Below, piece after piece: positions 10,070-21,880 of a DNA stretch of 64,000 bases (its first letter is position 1; every line of letters begins with the position of its first letter). Both the position numbers and the translations under genes were made by a program. Location: contig JAZSFD010000048.1 in NCBI GenBank assembly GCA_045532035.1, positions 34,755-98,754 on the forward strand, in the 5' to 3' direction. Source of the stretch: Eubacteriales bacterium (GTDB lineage: Bacteria > Bacillota > Clostridia > Oscillospirales > CAG-382). The notes below the pieces were generated by a model. That model did no database searches, had not been told where the DNA came from, and saw only the letters and a program-made list of their open reading frames with translations.

Positions 10070-11068
10070 ATGGCATTGTTTGAAAATTATGAAAGACGCG
10101 TTGACAAAATCAACGCTGTACTTGCCGAATACGGAATCGGCTCTATTGAAGAATGTCGCGAGATCACCCTTGCAAAGGGCATCGACTGCGATAAGATCGT
10201 AAAAGAAACTCAGCCTATCTGCTTCGAAAACGCAGTTTGGGCATACACTGTCGGTGCAGCTATCGCAATCAAGAAGGGCTGCACAAAGGCTGCTGACGCC
10301 GCTGCTGCAATCGGTATCGGACTTCAGGCTTTCTGTATTCCCGGCTCTGTTGCTGAAAACCGTAAGGTTGGTCTCGGCCACGGAAACCTCGGTTCGATGC
10401 TTCTCTCGGAAGAAACAGAATGCTTCTGCTTCCTTGCAGGTCACGAATCCTTTGCTGCTGCTGAAGGTGCTATCAAGATTGCCCTCAACGCAAACAAGGT
10501 AAGAACAAAGCCTCTTCGCGTTATCCTCAACGGTCTCGGCAAGGATGCCGCTTTCATTATCTCGAGAATCAACGGCTTCACATATGTCAAGACAGAATTC
10601 AACGCTAACACCGAAGAGATCAAGGTTGTTTCCGAAACTCCTTACTCCGACGGTCCCAGAGCGAAGGTTAAGTGCTACGGCGCTGACAACGTTCCCGAAG
10701 GCGTTGCTATCATGAGACTTGAAAATGTTGGCGTTTCCATCACCGGTAACTCCACCAACCCCACAAGATTCCAGCATCCCGTTGCAGGTACCTACAAGAA
10801 GTGGTGTACAGAAAACGGCGTGAACTACTTCTCTGTTGCATCGGGCGGCGGTACAGGTCGTACACTTCATCCCGACAACATGGCAGCAGGCCCCGCTTCC
10901 TACGGCATGACAGATACCATGGGACGTATGCACTCTGACGCTCAGTTTGCAGGCTCGTCCTCTGTTCCCGCACACGTTGAAATGATGGGACTTATAGGCA
11001 TGGGTAACAACCCCATGGTTGGTGCTACAGTTGCTGTGGCTGTTGCGGTTGAAGAAGCTTCAAAGTAA
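10070..11068 (+). CDS. GGGtGRT family protein (function unknown)
   Basis: 332 aa containing the eponymous motif SGGGTGRTLHPD. The last 22 codons overlap the attL core of the integrated element. Confidence 0.85.
   Translation: MALFENYERRVDKINAVLAEYGIGSIEECREITLAKGIDCDKIVKETQPICFENAVWAYTVGAAIAIKKGCTKAADAAAAIGIGLQAFCIPGSVAENRKVGLGHGNLGSMLLSEETECFCFLAGHESFAAAEGAIKIALNANKVRTKPLRVILNGLGKDAAFIISRINGFTYVKTEFNANTEEIKVVSETPYSDGPRAKVKCYGADNVPEGVAIMRLENVGVSITGNSTNPTRFQHPVAGTYKKWCTENGVNYFSVASGGGTGRTLHPDNMAAGPASYGMTDTMGRMHSDAQFAGSSSVPAHVEMMGLIGMGNNPMVGATVAVAVAVEEASK
11002..11037. repeat. attL core (36-bp perfect direct repeat)
   Basis: GGGTAACAACCCCATGGTTGGTGCTACAGTTGCTGT, identical to 21794..21829. Confidence 0.85.
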
Positions 11069-11106
11069 GCCTTATACAAGGGTTTTCACAACTTAAATAA
11101 AAAACT

Positions 11107-11142
11107 GGAGTTCTGATTCAGACGAGTCAGAACTCCTTTTTT
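11107..11142 (+). terminator. Rho-independent terminator supplied by the element for the GGGtGRT gene
   Basis: Stem GGAGTTCTGA / TCAGAACTCC followed by TTTTTT. Confidence 0.8.
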
Positions 11143-11160
11143 GGTCACATTTGGTCACAT
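11141..11160. repeat. Tandem TTGGTCACAT x2, putative integrase arm-type site (left)
   Basis: The 18-nt string TGGTCACATTTGGTCACA (11142-11159) is identical to 21673-21690. An inverted half-site TGTGAC follows at 11165-11170. Confidence 0.6.
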
Positions 11161-11186: not shown

Positions 11187-12140
11187 TTACTTGTTAGAGG
11201 TTAGATTGGGTATCAAAACAAATTTTGTTTCCGAGTCTGATAGCTCATTATTTCGTTTTTGTATCAGGTCAATAGTCATTTGACGGCTGAACCCAATCTT
11301 GAAAGCATTACTGCAAATAATATCAAACTGCCTTGAACTATCCTCGAATGTATATCCGTTATAGTTGAGAAGCTTTTCGGCATATCCATAATTCAATCCT
11401 AAAAGGAACGCTATATTCACAAAAAGCTTTTTGTCAAATTGTTTTTCACAGGATGAAGCATTTTGAAAGTCGTTATAAACGGTTTTGGATATTCCTGCGA
11501 ATTTCAAAGATTCGTTGTAATTGTTCTTTTTTGGCGTTGTAACATAATCTTCTTTGTAGTGTTTGTCATTCTCACACTCTTTTAGAAACTCTCTGTATGT
11601 CATTGTTTTGAGCATTTCTTTGTCTTTGAATGCTCTTATAGTGATAGTGACATCACAAAAACTCTGCTCAGAAATCACATCGTGAAGTTTTGCACGGTAG
11701 CAGGATTTGTTTTCTGGCTTGAATATTTCAAGAATCTTTTCATAATCACCAGATAGAAAATCATTGCTGATATACTTTGATGTTTTTTCTGGTGCAAAGA
11801 AACTACTCAACTGATTGTCATAAGTGTCCTTAGGATATTCATAAATGCCATTGCCAAAATCAAGCGTTACAGAGAGTCTTTCTTTATACCTTATATAAGC
11901 AAGAGCTTTTTTGAATTTTTCAGAAAGGTAAATGCTGTTTTTGCCGTTCTGTTCTATGTCTTTGTTGTAATGTTCTTCCCATTCAAGACAAAATGCCTCT
12001 AACTTATCAAGGTATTCCTCATCCGTATCGTAGTTTTCTCTTTTTACAACCTCGTGACAAGCAATAAGCCAGTCAGCCAGTTGCATATAGTTTTTGCTTT
12101 TCAAATCTTCTTCAAAAAGCTCACACGACCAATAATTCAT
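11187..12140 (-). CDS. Hypothetical protein with unknown N-terminal domain and C-terminal HTH-associated tail
   Basis: 317 aa with RBS GGTGGTGGA. The C-terminal segment IAFLLGLNYGYAEKLLNYNGYTFEDSSRQFDIICSNAFKIGF matches the (A)GY-x-F/L-S...FD-x-II tail that I recall following XRE-type HTH domains in Firmicutes. Confidence 0.4.
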   Translation of the reverse strand: MNYWSCELFEEDLKSKNYMQLADWLIACHEVVKRENYDTDEEYLDKLEAFCLEWEEHYNKDIEQNGKNSIYLSEKFKKALAYIRYKERLSVTLDFGNGIYEYPKDTYDNQLSSFFAPEKTSKYISNDFLSGDYEKILEIFKPENKSCYRAKLHDVISEQSFCDVTITIRAFKDKEMLKTMTYREFLKECENDKHYKEDYVTTPKKNNYNESLKFAGISKTVYNDFQNASSCEKQFDKKLFVNIAFLLGLNYGYAEKLLNYNGYTFEDSSRQFDIICSNAFKIGFSRQMTIDLIQKRNNELSDSETKFVLIPNLTSNK

Positions 12141-12152
12141 ATTTCCACCACC

Positions 12153-12190
12153 ATAAAAATGCCGCCAGAACGATTAAACATTCTGACGGC
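12153..12190 (-). terminator. Rho-independent terminator about 13 nt upstream of the 317-aa gene start codon
   Basis: On the minus strand: GCCGTCAGAA, a 10-nt loop, TTCTGGCGGC (one G-U pair), then ATTTTTAT. Confidence 0.6.
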
Positions 12191-12343
12191 TTTTCTCCTG
12201 CCCGTAAGGGCAGGGTAGTCCTCTTTTTTTCTCAACCATTAGTACTTCCTGCCTCTGTCTTTACTTGTGAGTACAGATATGAGAGAGGTGAGAGTTTGTC
12301 CCACATTGTATTATATGGTTGAGGTTGTCAGAATATAACTTAT

Positions 12344-13735
12344 TTATTGTTTATCCTTATATGGCGTATCTTTAAAGCCTTTATCTTTCAGCTTCATTAC
12401 TATTCTATCTATTACAGCTTTCCAAGCCTTTTTAAACCACGCTGTCTCTCCAAACCATTTTACAAGCGCTGGACTGATTGCGTAATATGTTTTTATAAAA
12501 GTTCTGCCATACCAAGTCTTTGAAAGCTGACTATCCCTGAATCGACGAAGTCTCCATACTTCTGGGCAGTCGTATGAGCCATATACACAGGTGGCTATAT
12601 AACATCCACCCTCACCACTTTCTCCATTGGTTATAGCACGCATATGTTCTTCAAGGTTTCCTTCTATTTTTAACTTGGTAGGAAAGCTTAAATAGTGTTG
12701 GCTTTCATACATTCCTTCATAACCTATAACAATGGTTTTGCCATTTATACATTCAATAGAATAATACTTTCCGCATTTTTCGTTAATTTCATCACAAATA
12801 TTACTATCACAAAAATAACGAATAATTCTTTTTATATTACGGTTATTTTCTGGTGTGTTTGAAAAAAGTCGATTGCTACCATTATTATATTTTCTAATAA
12901 TTTCCACACTATATTTACACTCATCAATAAATGCAGATAGATAAGGTGCTACATCATCATACACTTTTAAACTTTCGGGGATGACTGCATGTTGATTATT
13001 GTTAGCATAAATCTGACCCCCGTCTGATGAAATGCTTGTTAACTCTCCATTTGAGTAGGAGAATTTTCCATTCTCATCGTTTAACACAAAACCATAGTTG
13101 TAGTATGTATAAGCACATTCTTTGTTATAACACAAATCAATAATGTGCTGTGAAAACTCCAGTGATGCTTTGTTATATGTATCAATAAGGTTATTTACGT
13201 TATTTACCATCAAGTTTATTTCTTCGATTAGGTGTTCAACATCGTAATTAAACCTTTTGGAGATTTGTTGAATGTAATTTAAATGTTTTTTAATATCAGA
13301 AATACACTTTTCATATCTGCGAATGCTACCACTCAACAGAGGATTGCAACGACAGCTTTTTCTAGGGTAGTCGTAAGAAAACAGTTTTTGATAATTGAGA
13401 TACTGCTGTTCTGATGTGTAAACTGTATAACAGTACTTAGCACACGCAAACCAAACTACAGGATTGTTAGAAGAAGTTCGTTCGAGTTTATTAAGAATGT
13501 TTTCAGCTTCTTTGAACTTTCCGATGATAGTCAAGCTCTCAACATTTTTTATATCTTCATCAACATCATTTATTCCTTTTACCGATACAGGATTATCTAC
13601 CTCAACTAATAATTTTTTGGCAGCTTCTGGAGTATACTTTGTTCCACAAAATTGACAAACAAAATAATCTTCTTGTTTAACCAACTCATTACTTCCACAT
13701 AGTTCGCATTTTATTGCTTTTATTGTTTCTGACAT
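12344..13735 (-). CDS. Zinc-ribbon protein with conserved Cys-rich C-terminal module (cargo module A, gene 2)
   Basis: ORF 12344..13753 trimmed to the ATG at 13735, preceded by AAGGAG at 7-nt spacing. The N-terminus carries CELCGS-x16-CQFCGTKY. The C-terminus is GGCYIATCVYGSYDCPEVWRLRRFRD...WYGRTFIKTYYAISPALVKWFG. I recognise no enzymatic motif. Confidence 0.6.
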   Translation of the reverse strand: MSETIKAIKCELCGSNELVKQEDYFVCQFCGTKYTPEAAKKLLVEVDNPVSVKGINDVDEDIKNVESLTIIGKFKEAENILNKLERTSSNNPVVWFACAKYCYTVYTSEQQYLNYQKLFSYDYPRKSCRCNPLLSGSIRRYEKCISDIKKHLNYIQQISKRFNYDVEHLIEEINLMVNNVNNLIDTYNKASLEFSQHIIDLCYNKECAYTYYNYGFVLNDENGKFSYSNGELTSISSDGGQIYANNNQHAVIPESLKVYDDVAPYLSAFIDECKYSVEIIRKYNNGSNRLFSNTPENNRNIKRIIRYFCDSNICDEINEKCGKYYSIECINGKTIVIGYEGMYESQHYLSFPTKLKIEGNLEEHMRAITNGESGEGGCYIATCVYGSYDCPEVWRLRRFRDSQLSKTWYGRTFIKTYYAISPALVKWFGETAWFKKAWKAVIDRIVMKLKDKGFKDTPYKDKQ

Positions 13736-13757
13736 TTTATTCTCCTTTTTCATTTAG

Positions 13758-14375
13758 CTATTTAAGTAGTTTTTTATTTACTGCTTTGTATGCCTTGTTT
13801 GATATTACAACTGTAAGTAATGAAATGCAAGACACAATTAAAACTGTTATAGTACAAGAGCCGAGATTTATTGGTATTTTAACGCTTTTGAAACAATTAT
13901 TAAGCACTTGTAAAAGGCTGATTGAAAATATTATATCGAATATGAACGCAAAAACCCAAAAAGCTTCCAATGTTATATGCAATGGCTTATAATATAATAT
14001 TTGTCTTTTCTCGGATGAACAATATTTGTTCTCTATACTTTTAAGCCTCTTTTCAAGTTTCATAATTAATTCACGCGAAACATATATAGTACGTATACAG
14101 GATATCGTTCCAAACAATCCTATAAACGAACAAATAGAACAAGCTATATAGAGCAGACAAGATGTAGCATTATTATCAGAATAAATCTCAGAAAACAGCG
14201 TTGCGATTATTGCCAAAACTCCAATGGTAACAGCCAAATTAATTGTTATTACTGTTTGTGCTCCGTGCAAAGCATTTACAAATTCATTTGATAAAACACT
14301 ATACTGTGTTATTACAAAATCAGAATCATTGTTACCCATATTCTTTATACAACACTTTCTTTTCAATGATTTCAC
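13758..14375 (-). CDS. Four-TM membrane protein (cargo module A, gene 1)
   Basis: 205-aa ORF. The likely true start is the TTG at 14366, after AAGGGG. Four hydrophobic helices are visible, with an amphipathic loop between TM2 and TM3. Confidence 0.55.
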   Translation of the reverse strand: MKSLKRKCCIKNMGNNDSDFVITQYSVLSNEFVNALHGAQTVITINLAVTIGVLAIIATLFSEIYSDNNATSCLLYIACSICSFIGLFGTISCIRTIYVSRELIMKLEKRLKSIENKYCSSEKRQILYYKPLHITLEAFWVFAFIFDIIFSISLLQVLNNCFKSVKIPINLGSCTITVLIVSCISLLTVVISNKAYKAVNKKLLK

Positions 14376-14401
14376 CCCTTCGTTGTGAATTTTTCAAGAA
14401 T

Positions 14402-14430
14402 ATTATAACACATAATTTTCCAAAAGACAA
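14402..14430 (-). promoter_or_regulatory. Promoter of cargo module A (extended -10)
   Basis: On the minus strand: TTGTCT, a 17-nt spacer, TATAAT, with TGT immediately upstream of the -10. The palindrome at 14441-14454 lies directly upstream. Confidence 0.45.
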
Positions 14431-14440
14431 TACCTTTATG

Positions 14441-14454
14441 TCCGTTTAGACGGA
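14441..14454. repeat. 14-bp palindromic motif TCCGTTTAGACGGA (copy 1 of 3)
   Basis: The same 14-mer occurs at 15390-15403. Its reverse complement occurs at 18160-18173. All three copies are in island intergenic regions. Confidence 0.7.
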
Positions 14455-14484
14455 ATTATCATTTAATTTACAATTTGTTTTGTG

Positions 14485-15267
14485 CTATGGTGGTATATAT
14501 AGTTTAATTAAATAACAGAGTTCCTTTAATATATAGGAAGAATTATTTGTATTAAGACGTTTGTATAATCCATTAAATATATAAACGTTCAATATATATT
14601 TAATAGTTAAAATTAAATTAAGAAGTAGTATATATATTCTTTCTTTATTACATGAGAGTTTTTTGAGAAACAGAAAAGGGTTGCAAATGCCCTTGAATAC
14701 AAGGATTCTGGCGGTTTCATCAGCCGCACTTTTTCTGAACTTTAATCTGTTATCCCCGACAGCTTCTATTGCCTTGTAGAAACTGAGCTTGTCATTGTTA
14801 AGAACCCCTGCTTTGTCACAATCGAGCTTGCGGATGGCAAGGGATTGTTTTGCAAGGTACTCAACGGAAGCCTCTACATACGAATTGGCTTCGTTCTCCC
14901 AAGTTACTTTCCTTTTATATTTAGTGCGGAGGTGCTTCTTTAACATTTCCACAATGGTAGTGGCAGGGTTAGCGTACATCACAATGTGAATATGCGCGGG
15001 GACTTCGGGTTTAAGGCAGTACGGGTTTGTACGGACAAAGATTGTTCGGGGTCTGCCTCGTGTCCCCGTGTGGAGTGCTTGAACCTCTCCTGCACGTGGA
15101 TTATTCTTGCTTATACCGACAATGGCTTTGCAGGAGTAACCGTTCTTCTTGCAATGATAGTCAAGGAACGAAACGATTGCTTCCGCTTCTGCAACAGCTT
15201 CTTCAAAGCTTGTGAATAGTCCTGCCGACACATTCACACTCATAACATGGCTTACTCTATGGCTCAC
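14485..15267 (-). CDS. Hypothetical protein, possible HUH/Y1 (IS200-TnpA-like) nuclease fold
   Basis: GTG start after AAGGGGGTG. The segment PAHIHIVMYANPATTIVEMLKKHLRTKY...TWENEANSY...SVEYLAKQS resembles the D-HVH-LLV...P...LKG...W...Y...YI-x-x-Q layout of Y1 transposases. The last 70 or so codons run through very AT-rich DNA, so the true 3' end is uncertain. Confidence 0.35.
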   Translation of the reverse strand: MSHRVSHVMSVNVSAGLFTSFEEAVAEAEAIVSFLDYHCKKNGYSCKAIVGISKNNPRAGEVQALHTGTRGRPRTIFVRTNPYCLKPEVPAHIHIVMYANPATTIVEMLKKHLRTKYKRKVTWENEANSYVEASVEYLAKQSLAIRKLDCDKAGVLNNDKLSFYKAIEAVGDNRLKFRKSAADETARILVFKGICNPFLFLKKLSCNKERIYILLLNLILTIKYILNVYIFNGLYKRLNTNNSSYILKELCYLIKLYIPP

Positions 15268-15389
15268 GGTTACACCCCCTTTAAAAAATATCGTTTTCTA
15301 TATAAGTGCATATTTTTTCAAAAAAATAAATAGGAAAGGTGTTCGAGCAAACATTTTGTCGGCAATATGTCTTGTTTTTTGCCCAAAAT

Positions 15390-15403
15390 TCCGTTTAGAC
15401 GGA
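15390..15403. repeat. 14-bp palindromic motif TCCGTTTAGACGGA (copy 2 of 3)
   Basis: Identical to copy 1. It lies upstream of the 14485..15267 gene. Confidence 0.7.
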
Positions 15404-15458
15404 CACAAGTGTATTTACCTTTCTGAATTTATGTGCTAAAATAAGAATGTCAGCAAAC

Positions 15459-15485
15459 AAAAAAGCCGTCGGTTAAACCAACAGC
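15459..15485 (-). terminator. Rho-independent terminator ending the wHTH operon
   Basis: On the minus strand: GCTGTTGGTTTAACCGACGGC hairpin followed by TTTTTTG. Confidence 0.5.
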
Positions 15486-15511
15486 TAAAATGGGAAGAAA
15501 GAATAATGGCA

Positions 15512-15634
15512 TTACGGATAATCTTCATTCATATGCTCAATCCATAGTGAAAACTCCTTGTCGAAGTTTTGCATATACCACTCGTGCATATCATCTTCAA
15601 ATTCAAGATACTCTTTGTCGTCCTCTCTGTTCAT
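15512..15634 (-). CDS. Small acidic hypothetical protein (40 aa)
   Basis: Below the ORF-track cutoff. Sequence MNREDDKEYLEFEDDMHEWYMQNFDKEFSLWIEHMNEDYP. RBS GTGAGGT at 7 nt. It sits between the upstream gene and the terminator. Confidence 0.35.
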   Translation of the reverse strand: MNREDDKEYLEFEDDMHEWYMQNFDKEFSLWIEHMNEDYP

Positions 15635-15704
15635 CGTGTTACCTCACTTGTCTAAGATATTACATTTTATATATAAGCAAGGCTGTATATAAGAAAATAG
15701 TGCT

Positions 15705-16625
15705 TTACACCCACTTTCCAATATCAATCCCCGAAAACAATCTGTTCTTGCAGTTGTACCAGTGAAAAAATATATTTTCTCGATAATAATCTTCTTTGAG
15801 TTCGTTCCCTTTGATAGCAAGTAAATTCCTGTGAAGTTTTTTCTCGGTATGTTCGTTTCTTTCGGACAAGGAATAAATATCAAAAATATTTTTAATATTT
15901 ATATCTCCGAAAATGTCCTCAACCGCTTTTTCCGTTTTCGTGATAATCTCCGAGAGTTTGTCGGCATTTTTGTTTGTGCCGAACACAGCGAAGTGCAGAC
16001 ATATCCTGCCGTCATTGAAGCTTGCAGATTCAACATACACATCATTACTACGCAGGGTAAGCAAGTCATCTGACTTTACTCCTTGTCCGTTCAACTTTTC
16101 CTTTCGTCCTTTGATACTGCCCTTGATAAAAGCAATTTTCCTGTCAAGCTCATCAATGCTCCATTGAAGCGTTGAGAGATTGCTTTCTCCGTGTTGATTG
16201 AGGAATGTATATATCCTGTTAAGAATATCCCTGCTGTGATGTGGCTGAAAATACGAAAAGTTGCTCATGGTCAGCCGTGACTGAATTTTGATTAGCTCGT
16301 CTGGATTATAACGCTGTAACATCATTTCACACCACAGGGCGTTATGCAAAAGCATTTTGACTGTGATTCTTGCCTCTTTGTTTTCAAGGCAGAAATAGCT
16401 GAACACACTATGTTTTAATATAATAATGAAGTTTCTTCCTATTTTTTGCTGTTTGATTAACTTATGTTCAATCATTGAGTTAAGTATGTACGAAGCGTTC
16501 TTGCCTATCAGCTTTGCGAAATGTGTTCGGAAGATAACACCGCCACAGCCGAACAAAGCAATATAGAACTGCTTGTGGTACGTCCTTAACAATTCACTTT
16601 GTATTCGTGTCTGAATCTCATTCAT
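15705..16625 (-). CDS. Hypothetical protein, wHTH-like N-terminus (possible replication/relaxation function)
   Basis: 306 aa with RBS AAGGGGGA. It is the second gene of an operon with 16641..17234. I saw no catalytic motif. Confidence 0.3.
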   Translation of the reverse strand: MNEIQTRIQSELLRTYHKQFYIALFGCGGVIFRTHFAKLIGKNASYILNSMIEHKLIKQQKIGRNFIIILKHSVFSYFCLENKEARITVKMLLHNALWCEMMLQRYNPDELIKIQSRLTMSNFSYFQPHHSRDILNRIYTFLNQHGESNLSTLQWSIDELDRKIAFIKGSIKGRKEKLNGQGVKSDDLLTLRSNDVYVESASFNDGRICLHFAVFGTNKNADKLSEIITKTEKAVEDIFGDINIKNIFDIYSLSERNEHTEKKLHRNLLAIKGNELKEDYYRENIFFHWYNCKNRLFSGIDIGKWV

Positions 16626-16640
16626 TAAAATTCCCCCTTT

Positions 16641-17234
16641 CTATATTCGTTCCATTTCTAAGTTCCCGCCAATCGAGGCAACAGCCTCAATCTTCGCCTG
16701 TATTTCCATTTCTCCGTATGAGCTTGTTACCACCTCATAATAGCTGTCAATGCCGTACTGCAAGTCTGGCATTGAAATGCTGTGGTCTTGCAGGGCGTTA
16801 TATAACTGTTCGTACCTTTCGTACTCTCGGCTGTCGAGTAATTCCTGCAATCTGTCACGGAACTGGTCTCTGATTTCCGATTCCGTTCTCATAGTGGAGC
16901 GTTCTTCTGCTGACAACGACAGTATCTTGTTCATAAGCTGAATGTCGTGTTCAACCCCTGTGGAAGAATAGAACTTTCTATCGGCAAGGCTGTCTATATG
17001 TTCCCGAACCCAGAGCTTTCCTTGTTCGGATATACGGTATATCTCTTGACGAACACCGTCTTTTGAAGTGTGGGAACACTTCTCAATCGTTTTGTCAAGC
17101 ACGAAATTCTTGAGGCGATTAGACGAAATGAATTGAAGTGCCTGTTGTTTTGTGCAAATCCCCGAACAGCGTAGGCTGTTAAGAAAGTCAACGTCACGAT
17201 GATTGACGGTTTGCACATAATGTGATTTTCTCAA
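16641..17234 (-). CDS. Hypothetical protein, wHTH-like, replication-relaxation-like
   Basis: ORF trimmed to the in-frame TTG at 17234, 4 nt after AGGAGGTGA. The N-terminal RDVDFLNSLRCSGICTKQQALQF and the later VEHDIQLMN recall the Replic_Relax layout. Support is weak. Confidence 0.3.
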   Translation of the reverse strand: MRKSHYVQTVNHRDVDFLNSLRCSGICTKQQALQFISSNRLKNFVLDKTIEKCSHTSKDGVRQEIYRISEQGKLWVREHIDSLADRKFYSSTGVEHDIQLMNKILSLSAEERSTMRTESEIRDQFRDRLQELLDSREYERYEQLYNALQDHSISMPDLQYGIDSYYEVVTSSYGEMEIQAKIEAVASIGGNLEMERI

Positions 17235-17338
17235 AAAATCACCTCCTTGTACGCTCCTGCGAGACCGAGCGAAATGAAACAATTTAAGTAACATTCACGG
17301 CATCGGGAATGTGGTAGCTCTGCTGACTTAAATTGTGT

Positions 17339-18159: not shown

Positions 18160-18173
18160 TCCGTCTAAACGGA
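18160..18173. repeat. 14-bp palindromic motif, reverse orientation TCCGTCTAAACGGA (copy 3 of 3)
   Basis: Embedded in an 8-bp stem AAATCCGT/ACGGATTT just after the ardA stop and 17 nt upstream of the xis-int promoter -35. Confidence 0.7.
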
Positions 18174-18273: not shown

Positions 18274-18546
18274 ATGATAAATAACACAATTATAATGACA
18301 GACAACAGCGGAGAAGTTTCCGTTACAAAGGATATTAAGCTTTACACAGTACAAGAGGTTGCAGACATTCTTGGGGTGAATAAAACAGCGGTTTATGGTC
18401 TTATTAAAAGAGGAGAGCTTCCAGCGATAAAGCTTGGTACAACCCGAATAAGACATAACGCTCTTGTTTTATTCCTTGACAAGATTGAAAGTAATGGTTA
18501 CCCACAGCCAGAATGCAGAATTTCACAGACACTTAAAGGGGCGTAA
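18274..18546 (+). CDS. xis: Excisionase-family HTH DNA-binding protein
   Basis: 90 aa. YTVQEVADILGVNKTAVYGLIKRGELPAIKLG is the MerR-like excisionase HTH. It lies directly upstream of int. Confidence 0.8.
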   Translation: MINNTIIMTDNSGEVSVTKDIKLYTVQEVADILGVNKTAVYGLIKRGELPAIKLGTTRIRHNALVLFLDKIESNGYPQPECRISQTLKGA

Positions 18547-18549
18547 GCT

Positions 18550-20094
18550 ATGGCAAGAGAAGTTCATGTAGGTAAAGCTGCTATTACTAAGAATGGCGAG
18601 CCTACAAAGAAATTTACTTGGTATTATCGTTTTGAGCGAAAAGATGTTGCCCCCGATGGCAGACGTCAATTTACGAAGAAACGAGGATTCAGAACAAGAG
18701 ATGAGGCTCTTGAAGCAGGTCAGATTGCAATGGCTCTTGATTATGGTATCAGCACTCCTGCGGTAAATACTCCGCAGGAGACAAAGCCAGAGAACAAGTA
18801 TGCAAGTATGACATTTGAAGACTACATAATCAATGTATGGATTCCCAACAATCAAAGGTCTTGGAAATCTACTACGCTTGAGGGGTATAGGAAGAAACTA
18901 AAGAACCAAGCATTCAGCAAGTTCGGTAATACTCCTATATCAGCAATCACAGGGGAAATGCTAAGTAATTATTTTGATACGATTTACATTAACACATCTA
19001 CCGCAATAAGCTCTATTGACAATTTACGTTCTCTTTTATCACAGATATTTAAGTATGCCGTTCTTAACAGGCATATTGAATATAATCCGATGATAAGTGT
19101 TAAAAAGCCGAATTTTCGGGTTGAAACAAGCGTGCCGAAAGAAAAACAGGTACGAGATGCGATAAGCGAAGAAACCTTAACCGCAATATTTGAAAGATTC
19201 CCAGAGGGAAGTCCTGCTCATTTGCCACTGAAATTATGCTGTATAGCAGGGTTAAGAGTAAATGAGGCTTTAGGTCTTGCGTGGTCTGATATTGATTTTG
19301 AAAAGCACAGAATGTTCGTCAGACGACAGATAGTCAAGATTCAAAAAGAGCATGAGCTTACTCCAAGAGAAAAAGAGATGGTTGAGAAGCACCCCGAACT
19401 TGCTTCTTTTAGTATGACTTGTTCAAATCCGAAATATGATTCAAAACGAGTTATCCCTCTTTTTCCAGAGCTTGAAGAACTGTTGCTTCGTGAAAGGAAA
19501 CGTCAGATAGAGCAAAAGGCACTATTCGAGGAAAACGGTGTTGAATACAAGCAGTATTTCTATACAAAGGCAACTGCTCCGAGCTACACTCTTGACTATG
19601 AGGAGTTCATACGTTTAAAAGAACGCATGGATTTTGAAGATGGAATTGTAAATACGAAAGGCATAGGCTATTCTATTGACTTTGTATGCAGACGAGATGA
19701 TGGAGAGCTTGCTACAATACACACAGCAAACCATGTGTCCCGTGTTGTACATGGCAAAGAAAAAGAGCCTGCTATTTCCGAAACATTCAACATTCATTCT
19801 CTTAGACATACTTTTGCATCAAGGCTCAGAGCAAGTGAATTTAACGGAAGCGAACACTTGATACAAGAGTTCATGGGGCATAAGTCCGAAAGAGAAACAA
19901 AAGACTATATGCACATATCGGAAAGTGAGTTTGCTTCTGCTACTGCCAGAATAGGCACAAGTAAATCAAAGGTAGATACCGTACTTGAATTTATCCGACT
20001 TCAAGGATTAAATGCTTCAGATATTTCGGAGTTGAGCTTGCGTTTGAGTACGCTCAATTCCGAGAGTTCTCAACTTAATACCGAGCAAAACTAA
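18550..20094 (+). CDS. int: Tyrosine-type site-specific integrase with N-terminal arm-binding domain
   Basis: 514 aa. Arg-I in AGLRVNEALGL, H-x-x-R in HSLRHTFASRL, and His/Tyr in GHKSERETKDYMH. The N-terminal YYRFERKD...KKRGFRTRDEA resembles AP2-like arm-binding domains. Confidence 0.9.
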   Translation: MAREVHVGKAAITKNGEPTKKFTWYYRFERKDVAPDGRRQFTKKRGFRTRDEALEAGQIAMALDYGISTPAVNTPQETKPENKYASMTFEDYIINVWIPNNQRSWKSTTLEGYRKKLKNQAFSKFGNTPISAITGEMLSNYFDTIYINTSTAISSIDNLRSLLSQIFKYAVLNRHIEYNPMISVKKPNFRVETSVPKEKQVRDAISEETLTAIFERFPEGSPAHLPLKLCCIAGLRVNEALGLAWSDIDFEKHRMFVRRQIVKIQKEHELTPREKEMVEKHPELASFSMTCSNPKYDSKRVIPLFPELEELLLRERKRQIEQKALFEENGVEYKQYFYTKATAPSYTLDYEEFIRLKERMDFEDGIVNTKGIGYSIDFVCRRDDGELATIHTANHVSRVVHGKEKEPAISETFNIHSLRHTFASRLRASEFNGSEHLIQEFMGHKSERETKDYMHISESEFASATARIGTSKSKVDTVLEFIRLQGLNASDISELSLRLSTLNSESSQLNTEQN

Positions 20095-20128
20095 AACCTC
20101 TTTGGAATGTTATCCAGAGAGGTTTTGT
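20095..20128. terminator. Bidirectional terminator between int and cargo module B
   Basis: AACCTCT..TGGA-loop-TCCA..AGAGGTT followed by TTGTT. Confidence 0.5.
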
Positions 20129-20136
20129 TATGTGTA

Positions 20137-20667
20137 TTATTGGAGTTTTGGTTGGTTATTATTTTGAAGCTCTTTTATAGACTCTTCCAAATTTTGTATT
20201 CTCCACTCTAAATTGTTATTTGTGACAGCAAAAGACGATTTCATTTCAGTTTTAATCTGTTCCAGTTGGAGTTCGAGTAATTCTTTATCTACACAATTAC
20301 TGTCAATGCTTTCTATCTGCTTTTCCATATATTCAACACGCTGCTCTAACAGTGCGGAATCTCTCCATAAGAACAGTGTTGCTGTTCCAATCGCTACAAT
20401 TATTGAGCAAATGACAGTAGTTAGAACATTTTGTCTAATCCAATCGATTATTCTAAAACGAAGAGATTTAGGCTTGATTTTGCTTTTATTATCAATACTA
20501 TCATTTTCTTCTTCGATTGAATCAGCAGTACCCTGTAAGTATTTGTTAGGATTGGGATAAGTATCATCTATATGAGGGGTGGGTGATGATAAGAAATTTC
20601 TATACCCAGAATACTGTGCTTGGTTTTTCCTTTTCAGTTTACTTAAGTTAGAATTTCTTTTTGCCAT
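20137..20667 (-). CDS. Single-pass membrane protein with C-terminal coiled coil (cargo module B, gene 2)
   Basis: 176 aa with a polar, basic N-terminus, one TM helix (VLTTVICSIIVAIGTATLFLW) and a heptad-rich tail (LEQRVEYMEKQIESI...LELQLEQIKTEM...IQNLEESIKELQ). It overlaps the upstream gene by 20 nt. Confidence 0.5.
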   Translation of the reverse strand: MAKRNSNLSKLKRKNQAQYSGYRNFLSSPTPHIDDTYPNPNKYLQGTADSIEEENDSIDNKSKIKPKSLRFRIIDWIRQNVLTTVICSIIVAIGTATLFLWRDSALLEQRVEYMEKQIESIDSNCVDKELLELQLEQIKTEMKSSFAVTNNNLEWRIQNLEESIKELQNNNQPKLQ

Positions 20668-21337
20668 TTTGAACCCCGTTAATCACATTTAAAATATCCG
20701 AATTATAATTGTCATTAGCATTAGTAATAAACTTATCTATGCAATCCCTAACATCTGCACGAACGGGAATATAATGGGCTTGATAATCATACAAAATCCC
20801 ACGTGTATTTTCGTCCATATTCCTTACAGTATATATTTTGTTTATAAAATCCGAGTTTTCTGCAAATAAACTACCTTTAACTGTTCCCTCTTTTTTTGCA
20901 AATCGAAAATCCATTATATCTCCAACGGTTGGGTTAAAATATTGAGAAGAAAACTTTTTAATCTCTTGTTCTGTGAGTGTTGTATCATACACAATTCCCA
21001 AACGCCTTACTACTAATTCGTATTTTGAGATAATCTGAGGGATTATTTGTTTTGAAATCCGTTTTATAAACATTTTGTATTCGTCATTGTAGTTTGAATC
21101 AATAGTTTGAGAGAAAATAAGATTGTTAGATGATAATGTTAATGAATGATTGAATTGTGGATTATACAACTTTCTTTCAGTTGTGTAGTTGGGAGAAATA
21201 TTAGTAAAAAACTCTGCACCCAATAGGGTGTCTTTTCCATACAGAATGTCATCAGCTATCTCTCCCCAATAATCAAGGATTTTAAAACTTCTGTTAAACA
21301 ATACGCCAAATGTCAGCTGTTTTATACTATCGCTCAT
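20648..21337 (-). CDS. Hypothetical soluble protein (cargo module B, gene 1)
   Basis: 229 aa with no motif I can name. It is likely translationally coupled to 20137..20667. Confidence 0.45.
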   Translation of the reverse strand: MSDSIKQLTFGVLFNRSFKILDYWGEIADDILYGKDTLLGAEFFTNISPNYTTERKLYNPQFNHSLTLSSNNLIFSQTIDSNYNDEYKMFIKRISKQIIPQIISKYELVVRRLGIVYDTTLTEQEIKKFSSQYFNPTVGDIMDFRFAKKEGTVKGSLFAENSDFINKIYTVRNMDENTRGILYDYQAHYIPVRADVRDCIDKFITNANDNYNSDILNVINGVQNGKKKF

Positions 21338-21429
21338 TTTTACACCGCCAATAATTATTACATTTTCATGCTAATTATATCACTTTTTCATTGTTATTGC
21401 AACAATATACCGCATTATTTTATGTTTTT

Positions 21430-21591
21430 TTACAAAACGTCTGCACGAGACAAGATTTTAAGTATTTCCAACATTTCTAATGTAAGGTTTAATTCACCAT
21501 TCTTGTCAAAAACTATGAGACCTTTGTTTATTAGTCGTTGTACCAAGTGTTTATAGTCTTCTGGGATATCTTCTATGTTTTTGTATTTCAT
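21430..21591 (-). CDS. Small hypothetical protein (53 aa)
   Basis: Trimmed to the ATG at 21591 after GAGGTG. Sequence MKYKNIEDIPEDYKHLVQRLINKGLIVFDKNGELNLTLEMLEILKILSRADVL. Confidence 0.4.
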   Translation of the reverse strand: MKYKNIEDIPEDYKHLVQRLINKGLIVFDKNGELNLTLEMLEILKILSRADVL

Positions 21592-21672: not shown

Positions 21673-21690
21673 TGGTCACATTTGGTCACA
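21673..21690. repeat. TGGTCACATTTGGTCACA, putative integrase arm-type site (right)
   Basis: Identical to 11142-11159. It lies 103 bp inside the attR core. Confidence 0.6.
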
Positions 21691-21793: not shown

Positions 21794-21829
21794 GGGTAAC
21801 AACCCCATGGTTGGTGCTACAGTTGCTGT
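21794..21829. repeat. attR core (36-bp perfect direct repeat)
   Basis: Identical to 11002..11037. Confidence 0.85.
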
Positions 21830-21860
21830 TGCGGTTGCTGTTGAAGAAAGCGCGAAGTAA
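21794..21860 (+). pseudogene. Orphaned original 3' end of the GGGtGRT gene
   Basis: In frame it reads GNNPMVGATVAVAVAVEESAK-stop, against ...EEASK-stop in the intact gene. There is no upstream coding continuation. Confidence 0.8.
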
Positions 21861-21880
21861 TTCATATTTAACAGCAGAAA

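Follow-up and report, generated by a model that had tools for sequence, protein, structure and literature searches.

What function do two overlapping genes serve when they sit at the very edge of a mobile element and belong to no named family? The question is raised by a 10.8-kb integrative element in a 64,000-nucleotide stretch of contig JAZSFD010000048.1 (assembly GCA_045532035.1, Eubacteriales bacterium), which was analysed as a whole and is called the window here. Gene A (20648–21337, minus strand) encodes a soluble protein of 229 amino acids and gene B (20137–20667, minus strand) a single-pass membrane protein of 176 amino acids; both were read in the window as open reading frames (ORFs), and they share 20 nt (20648–20667). 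A sequence-only reading of this DNA had described such an overlapping pair next to attR and had compared it to exclusion, abortive-infection or toxin-like effectors. The observation is confirmed, down to the ends of both ORFs and the length of their overlap, and the interpretation is partly supported. The pair, most often preceded by a small gene that we call C, is a portable and strictly co-inherited cassette, for which a role in conflicts between mobile elements is our tentative answer. New here are the A and B protein families, a soluble component predicted to be built like two tandem TATA-binding protein (TBP) repeats, and the optional small third gene.

The family founded by A has no name and comprises about 340 clusters at 50% identity. 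The 72 close homologues of A (215–233 amino acids, 39–59% identity) all lack a name, and the clusters obtained by a profile search of 1.84 billion representatives (340 with E ≤ 1e-3) are nearly all stand-alone proteins of about 215–260 amino acids. The B sequence used alone matched only itself, and its family was recovered only with a profile built from four B proteins at A-linked loci. At each of the first three independent A loci, an ORF of 168–190 amino acids with the architecture of B and 20–31% identity to it lies directly downstream of A. Hidden Markov models (HMMs) for A, B and C were run on 88 fetched loci and the window. The 76 loci with a full-length A group into 33 lineages at about 90% identity, and in 31 of the 32 lineages with at least 450 nt of downstream DNA the HMM places B directly after A, the distant remainder being assigned by inspection. 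In the distant relatives L028 and L029, whose A proteins are about 20–27% identical, the downstream ORFs share the B layout when inspected: a basic N-terminal tail with a Y..F motif, an acidic linker and a membrane helix. L029 has the coiled-coil tail as well, and so does another distant relative, L030; the L028 ORF is cut by the end of its contig.

The two genes evolve together. Their junction is tight at all loci, ranging from −20 to +15 nt, which supports the translational coupling that had been suggested from the overlap. The pairwise identities of A and B correlate with r = 0.90, B diverging faster than A (mean identity 34% vs. 50%). The ratio of nonsynonymous to synonymous substitution rates (dN/dS), taken from pairs with unsaturated dS, is 0.10–0.12 for A, 0.28–0.30 for B and 0.05–0.11 for C; as these values are well below 1, all three genes are under purifying selection and functional. 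The pairing of A and B goes beyond chance, because the adjacency recurs in every lineage, the identities co-vary and purifying selection is at work. Three checks had been proposed along with the sequence-only reading, namely co-occurrence of the two families, homologues with a documented unrelated function and purifying selection in alignments, and all came out in favour of the pair: the families were found together in every lineage examined, no homologue with such a function came to light, and both ORFs are constrained.

Some loci carry truncated or frameshifted copies of A that are still followed by the B gene (L016:1708-1902; L077 and L078, with A residues 75–221 only; L079 and L080, with A in two frames); such cassettes may be in decay. 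The genes have diverged unevenly in two comparisons, L049 with L065 and L011 with L031. In one pair A is 86%, B 55% and C 63% identical, and in the other B (75%) is closer than A (71%), a pattern suggesting that the cassette recombines internally or that B diversifies in episodes.

The cassette has transcription signals of its own. The start codon of B is supported by its N-terminus (MAKRNSN...), which aligns with the N-termini of the homologues. Beyond its stop codon, a hairpin of 15 pairs with T-runs on both strands (20092–20127) is a candidate bidirectional intrinsic terminator; it sits between the stop of the integrase gene (20094) and that of B (20137), the two genes being convergent, where a terminator of this kind separating the pair from int had been noted before. 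Directly upstream of A and on the same strand lies gene C (21430–21591, minus strand; 53 amino acids, MKYKNIEDIPEDYKHLVQRLINKGLIVFDKNGELNLTLEMLEILKILSRADVL), and the C–A spacer of 92 nt holds a predicted σ70-type promoter for A-B (21374–21402, minus strand; TTGCAA-17-TGaTATAAT, extended −10, 10 of 12 matches). An equivalent promoter, with a 17-nt spacer and often an extended −10, is found 12–40 nt before A with a score of at least 10/12 in 17 of 31 lineages, and the mean score across lineages is 9.6, vs. 7.9 in shuffled sequence. Because it has a predicted promoter of its own and a terminator after B, A-B can be regarded as an autonomous 'moron'-type transcription unit; judged from sequence, it combines the traits by which morons are recognised, that is, own promoter, own terminator and a location that varies among elements. 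A palindrome, ATTGTT-N5-AACAAT (21389–21405, minus strand), overlaps the −35 of the A-B promoter and was considered as an operator, a candidate that we rejected, since it is not conserved in other lineages.

Neither C nor the promoter had been seen in the sequence-only reading, and the unit usually consists of three genes. C is present upstream of A in 23 of the 31 lineages that have room for it, at 50–55 amino acids and with the conserved pattern P10 ... L20 ... G24 ... L47. R49. It matches no family in Pfam, NCBIfam or PHROGs, and its only PADLOC hit, PDC-S56, is weak (E 0.0048, 13.6 bits). The helix, β-hairpin and helix predicted from its sequence are reminiscent of a recognition helix with a wing. 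Where C is absent, its position is taken by a WYL-WCX regulator gene (L024, 68 nt upstream) or by a winged-helix (wHTH) ORF (L006), which fits the view that C is a small regulator or modulator of A-B.

Protein A has no hydrophobic segment (the maximum 19-residue Kyte-Doolittle score is 0.98) and no match in Pfam, NCBIfam, PADLOC (PADLOC-DB v2, 5027 models) or PHROGs, the libraries used for scanning in this work. The same was obtained for 63 diverse members of its family with Pfam, NCBIfam and PADLOC, the sole PADLOC hit being AbiEi at chance level (E 0.009), and for distant A and B members with PADLOC. Profile searches of the PDB with the A and C alignments gave chance hits only, and A and its 63 relatives showed no sequence or profile match to the TBP, DNA-glycosylase N-terminal and RNase HIII N-terminal families of Pfam. 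Thus, the two families that had been called unknown are indeed absent from every library searched, and A had rightly been described as a protein with no transmembrane segment and no nameable motif, but it is not featureless: a confident AlphaFold2 model, made from a 35-sequence alignment (pLDDT 91.2, pTM 0.89), has a tandem TBP-like (helix-grip) fold.

The model consists of two consecutive beta-alpha-beta3-alpha units with TBP-like topology, the first with strands (E) and helices (H) at E5-14, H19-33, E54-59, E64-69, E72-78 and H83-104, and the second at E110-121, H123-130, E144-151, E164-173, E179-193 and H200-220. It therefore contains, as far as a model can tell, the two tandem beta-alpha-beta(n)-alpha repeats of TBP type that characterise Pfam clan CL0407. 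When the model was compared with the PDB by Foldseek, all 33 matches with E < 1e-3 were TBPs (best E 7.5e-5, probability 0.90–0.99); the next matches were a Rep_trans rolling-circle initiator, AdoMet decarboxylase and helix-grip (SRPBCC) proteins, and the best match in a viral structure library, an unnamed one, has a template-modelling (TM) score of 0.54–0.60. The modelled protein would share with the TBPs of archaea and eukaryotes the order of the secondary structure elements and the presence of two tandem repeats; it differs from them in having four strands per repeat instead of five, and its identity to them is 7–10%. Bipartite TBP has been considered absent from bacteria (PMC3597702). The positions that are invariant or nearly so among the 63 diverse members are G11, F18, G25, D29, R112, G114, D163, N166, D184, Q186 and P191, and the polar ones lie mostly on strands of the C-terminal half, an arrangement that in the model would suit a binding or active site. 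We think that A is probably a nucleic-acid-binding module.

Such domains already have a place in phage defence. In the anti-phage RNase toxin RnlA, the substrate is bound by tandem TBP-like domains (PMC8266594), and Schlafen defence nucleases of bacteria carry TBP-like domains as fusions (PMC13056530). What A would have in common with RnlA/LsoA (TBP1-TBP2-HEPN) and the Schlafen fusions is the succession of TBP-like domains, their use as substrate-binding or sensor modules for nucleic acids and the phage-defence setting. Unlike RnlA/LsoA, A carries neither HEPN nor another nuclease domain, and it always occurs as a protein on its own, of about 215–260 amino acids; RnlA has no sequence match to A and is not among the top 50 Foldseek hits.

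Protein B carries one hydrophobic helix at residues 81–101 (Kyte-Doolittle score 2.27), with a charge of +6 on its N-terminal side and −6 on its C-terminal side. Its net charge is +7 over residues 1–30, −7 over 31–60 and +6 over 61–80, and from the charge pattern around the membrane helix an orientation with the N-terminus inside and the C-terminus outside is predicted. The protein is thus laid out as a basic N-terminal tail, a conserved cytoplasmic motif, an acidic linker, a basic juxtamembrane helix, the membrane helix and an external helical or coiled-coil domain (102–170). The C-terminal 70 residues or so are heptad-periodic, with 62–86% hydrophobic residues at a/d positions vs. 17–21% elsewhere. 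The basic N-terminus, the single membrane helix and the long heptad tail agree with what had been noted before, but the N-terminus that was then called disordered holds the most conserved motif of the protein (Y22..F25, T36.P..N41..L.GS47), and the best-conserved positions (Y22, T36, N41, L44 and G46) all fall in this cytoplasmic part. To judge from its conservation, the motif is probably a docking site for A that mediates the contact between the two proteins. The AlphaFold2 model of B is of low confidence (pLDDT 62.7) and proposes a short helix over Y22..F25, a disordered acidic linker, the juxtamembrane and membrane helices and further helices outside; its Foldseek matches, generic helical bundles with E > 0.1, were discarded for this reason. 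B has no match in Pfam, NCBIfam or PADLOC, and in PHROGs it gave only weak compositional hits to holins and spanins (E 0.0077–0.044).

In the window, the cassette is the last coding unit of the element, about 0.5 kb inside its right end, which is marked by the attR copy of a 74-nt direct repeat (21794–21867, plus strand). Contigs from four other samples carry the same element with 93–96% identity and match the window only up to 21820–21861, so that the claimed position next to attR holds on independent evidence. The placement at the edge of mobile elements, proposed from this single case, is general: the cassette was found at the ends of prophages and of integrative and conjugative elements (ICEs), integrative and mobilizable elements (IMEs) and Tn916-like elements, on a plasmid-like contig and in islands with restriction-modification, DarT or Fic genes. 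Thus, in Acutalibacter (L001) it sits at a prophage end, between a holin gene and xis/int; in L004 it follows the integrase of a Tn916-like element; in L006 (Anaerolineaceae) it belongs to an island with a resolvase, a DarT fragment and a Fic-like gene; in L024 it is near GmrSD-HNH, an EcoRI-type methylase, the WYL regulator and an integrase; in three phages (L017, L026, L027) it lies between an ArpU/DUF1492-like late regulator and the terminase genes; and in L029 it is on a plasmid-like contig with Rep3 and ParA. The commonest human-gut lineage (16 loci; L072:411-5550) has it at the end of an ICE, next to genes for a type IV coupling protein (TraG/VirD4), ArdA, DUF7768 and a ParB-like protein, with housekeeping genes (GDSL lipase, LplA, GHMP kinase) directly after. 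The species-representative genomes that carry the cassette are mostly metagenome-assembled genomes of Clostridia or Bacillota from gut and rumen. A tblastn search of 50,697 deposited phage genomes and 72,556 plasmids with A gave no match, so these sets hold no annotated or cultured example.

We think that C-A-B may be a conflict module between mobile elements, working in exclusion or abortive infection through a membrane-tethered nucleic-acid-binding protein, and we would give this reading a probability of roughly 40%. It is the best fit because the soluble and membrane proteins form a portable, self-transcribed and strictly co-inherited pair, located at element edges and in defence-type islands, in which B evolves faster, as is expected for a surface exposed to an arms race. 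In such a module, a self-contained accessory cassette would move among phages, conjugative or integrative elements and plasmids. A and B would be transcribed from their own conserved promoter and translationally coupled; B would span the membrane from a cytoplasmic N-terminus to an external C-terminus, and its cytoplasmic motif would dock A to give a membrane-tethered two-protein complex. This complex might stop or intercept foreign DNA as it enters at the membrane, which would amount to superinfection or entry exclusion, or it might couple the detection of an invader to an effect on the membrane or on nucleic acid (abortive infection). Signalling could run in either direction, with A sensing and B executing, as in RexA/RexB, or with B sensing at the envelope and releasing A, as in anti-sigma/sigma pairs. 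We infer that A and B interact physically, that A binds nucleic acid, that C regulates or modulates the pair and that the cassette serves in defence or exclusion at all.

The cassette belongs to none of the families against which it was compared, and by analogy it would be at most like a Rex- or Kiwa-type system of soluble and membrane proteins, or like an anti-sigma-type tether. The λ RexA/RexB pair and the analogous gp30/gp31 of mycobacteriophage Sbash are prophage two-component abortive-infection systems, made of a cytoplasmic and a membrane protein that are expressed independently of the lytic programme and need no other components; RexB has four membrane helices. The likeness to the cassette lies in the two adjacent genes on a temperate element, one for a cytoplasmic and one for a membrane protein. 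There are also differences: sequence and fold show no similarity, and RexA does not appear among the 50 best Foldseek matches of the A model; RexB is polytopic, B having a single helix followed by an external helical domain; and the optional C has no Rex counterpart. Kiwa (KwaA/KwaB) and SNIPE are reported also to combine a membrane component with a soluble or nucleic-acid-directed one at the site of DNA entry, and Kiwa responds to phage infection and conjugation alike (PMC11785009, PMC13190303). They differ from the cassette in domain content and transmembrane architecture, and no homology to them was detected (PADLOC negative).

Several results weigh against a conflict module. Superposition of TBP on the A model is poor globally (TM score 0.21–0.27, root-mean-square deviation 9.5–14 Å), so the resemblance is local and the two halves are probably arranged in a way that differs from TBP. 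When the N-terminal half was aligned with the C-terminal half by hhalign, the probability was 3%; there is no internal sequence repeat, and the pseudo-symmetry of the modelled A is structural only. The local nature of the likeness to TBP and the lack of a sequence repeat weaken the case for nucleic-acid binding by A. The single membrane helix of B is a weak basis for a pore-forming effector. Pfam, NCBIfam, PADLOC and PHROGs provided no homology to defence, exclusion or toxin proteins, the 63 diverse members included. Finally, two lineages have the cassette in an ordinary chromosomal setting, where its neighbours are an IS21 element within a polysaccharide locus (L025) or genes for ribosomal proteins (L030), and the sample of neighbourhoods is modest.

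Among the other explanations, the one that survives best, although we consider it unlikely, is an addiction module of the toxin-antitoxin (TA) kind that stabilises its carrier, in which B would be a membrane-damaging toxin, A its coupled upstream antitoxin and C a transcriptional regulator, a tripartite arrangement like that of ω-ε-ζ. The gene order, with a small gene followed by A and an overlapping B in tight coupling on a mobile element, suits this idea, as do the strict co-inheritance and co-variation of A and B, the weak holin/spanin hits of B and the nature of the carriers, since integrative elements, plasmid-like contigs and phages gain from stabilisation. The likeness to ω-ε-ζ extends to three genes on mobile elements, the first very small and the other two coupled, but the two have no protein family in common; in the cassette, size and conservation are highest for the second gene, and the third encodes a membrane protein. 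An A that is larger than B, better conserved and confidently folded would be unusual for a labile antitoxin, and no toxin or antitoxin family was matched in Pfam, NCBIfam or PADLOC. B, with its long conserved cytoplasmic region and external domain, is unlike the small membrane toxins. Moreover, B remains next to the broken copies of A (L016, L077–L080), where an intact toxin left unneutralised should be lethal. It should also be considered that many abortive-infection systems are TA-like, so that an addiction module overlaps with the conflict module.

A role in the life cycle of the element itself is slightly less likely still. It could take the form of an anti-sigma-like switch, with B holding a DNA-binding A, or of an accessory to lysis or DNA transfer, with B acting as a spanin or holin. 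In operons of extracytoplasmic function (ECF) sigma and anti-sigma factors, an upstream soluble gene overlaps a downstream gene for a single-pass protein with its N-terminus inside and a cytoplasmic binding region. The operon logic and the architecture of B copy these pairs, including a conserved cytoplasmic N-terminal region and an external domain that diverges faster, and the modelled fold class of A is that of a DNA-binding transcription factor; yet A has no sigma-70 regions, and B has no zf-HC2 or RsdA-type anti-sigma domain. The position of the cassette between the late regulator and the terminase genes in three phage lineages, and after a holin gene in three prophage lineages, also speaks for the life cycle of the carrier. 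Nevertheless, this position is not fixed, as phages, ICEs, IMEs, plasmid-like contigs and chromosomal islands all carry the cassette, and the predicted promoter looks constitutive. Most of the hosts are monoderm Clostridia, which have no need of spanins, and no partner o-spanin or endolysin is linked. The scan of the 33 lineage clusters placed a holin gene upstream in only two (L001, and L040 with L013 in its cluster), the PHROG hits of B are weak, and most lineages show no linkage to a lysis cassette. As a candidate, B as a spanin or holin was ruled out by the variable position, the monoderm hosts and the constant partner A, a soluble non-lipoprotein.

To an explanation outside all those considered here we assign a chance that is small, a little below that of a life-cycle role. 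An anti-defence or establishment function on entry into a new host, like that of ArdA, is very improbable. In its favour, the element has an ArdA gene 2.5 kb from the cassette, ArdA, DUF7768 and ParB genes directly adjoin it in the commonest human-gut lineage, and anti-defence genes are concentrated in the leading regions of conjugative elements (PMC11541004). There, however, they are reported exclusively on the transferred strand (PMC11541004), and the reading loses weight because the cassette is on the strand opposite ArdA and ParB both in the window and in L072. Anti-defence proteins do not typically have a membrane anchor and an external domain, and the cassette also occurs far from any transfer genes.

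Returning to the conflict module, a more specific version of it is worth stating, although we hold it with clearly less confidence and regard it as doubtful. C-A-B might be an undescribed anti-invader system, widespread in uncultivated gut and rumen Firmicutes and beyond, in which the tandem TBP-like A is held by the anti-sigma-like B, is released or activated once the envelope is breached by a phage or conjugative element, and then acts on nucleic acid. If this were true, bacterial immunity would gain a new sensing and effector logic, and the TBP fold would have a new function in bacteria. The tandem arrangement of this fold is usually regarded as archaeal and eukaryotic, and the cassette would provide a function for a stand-alone bacterial protein of this type. 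To our knowledge, very few defence systems from gut and rumen anaerobes have been tested so far; should defence or exclusion be the function of the cassette, a new family of about 340 clusters at 50% identity would have been wholly missed by current defence catalogues. Even if it were an addiction or regulatory module instead, the strict coupling of A and B would still define a new portable two-protein membrane switch. In our opinion, the system is small and tractable: it has two or three genes, its promoter is defined and its conserved peptide motif is short.

The element that carries the cassette in the window has several further features. Its GC content is low (0.31–0.41, vs. 0.45–0.50 in the flanks), and it is integrated in a GGGtGRT-family gene (10070–11068; PF14057, E 5e-195), whose 3' end overlaps the attL copy of the 74-nt repeat (11002–11075, plus strand); the first 36 nt of attL and attR are identical, and the repeat restores the end of the reading frame. 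By family match, xis (HTH_17; 18274–18546, plus strand) is followed by the gene of a tyrosine integrase of 514 amino acids (18550–20094, plus strand), the gene that converges with B. Six consecutive ORFs on the minus strand (11187–17294), of 317, 469, 205, 260, 306 and 217 amino acids, belong to no Pfam or PADLOC family, with the sole exception of the 469-residue protein, which has an A2L-type zinc ribbon at its N-terminus. No relaxase, replication or transfer gene was recognised among the ORFs of the element.

Two short motifs are repeated within the element. An identical 18-nt tandem motif, TGGTCACATTTGGTCACA, is located just inside both ends (11142–11159 and 21673–21690), the right copy overlapping a promoter-like site upstream of C (21689–21661); the copies may serve as arm-type sites for the integrase or as operators. 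The 14-nt palindrome TCCGTTTAGACGGA, or a close variant of it, occurs three times between genes (14441–14454, 15390–15403 and 18160–18173) as part of longer inverted repeats (I1, I15), and these copies may be shared terminators or regulator sites. In two other samples (L087:1-1328 and L088:1-1205), the same element abuts a second tyrosine integrase gene and not the chromosomal flank of the window. This second integrase is 48–49% identical to that of the window, and the junction carries the same att sequence, which suggests a tandem accretion of two elements at one att site.

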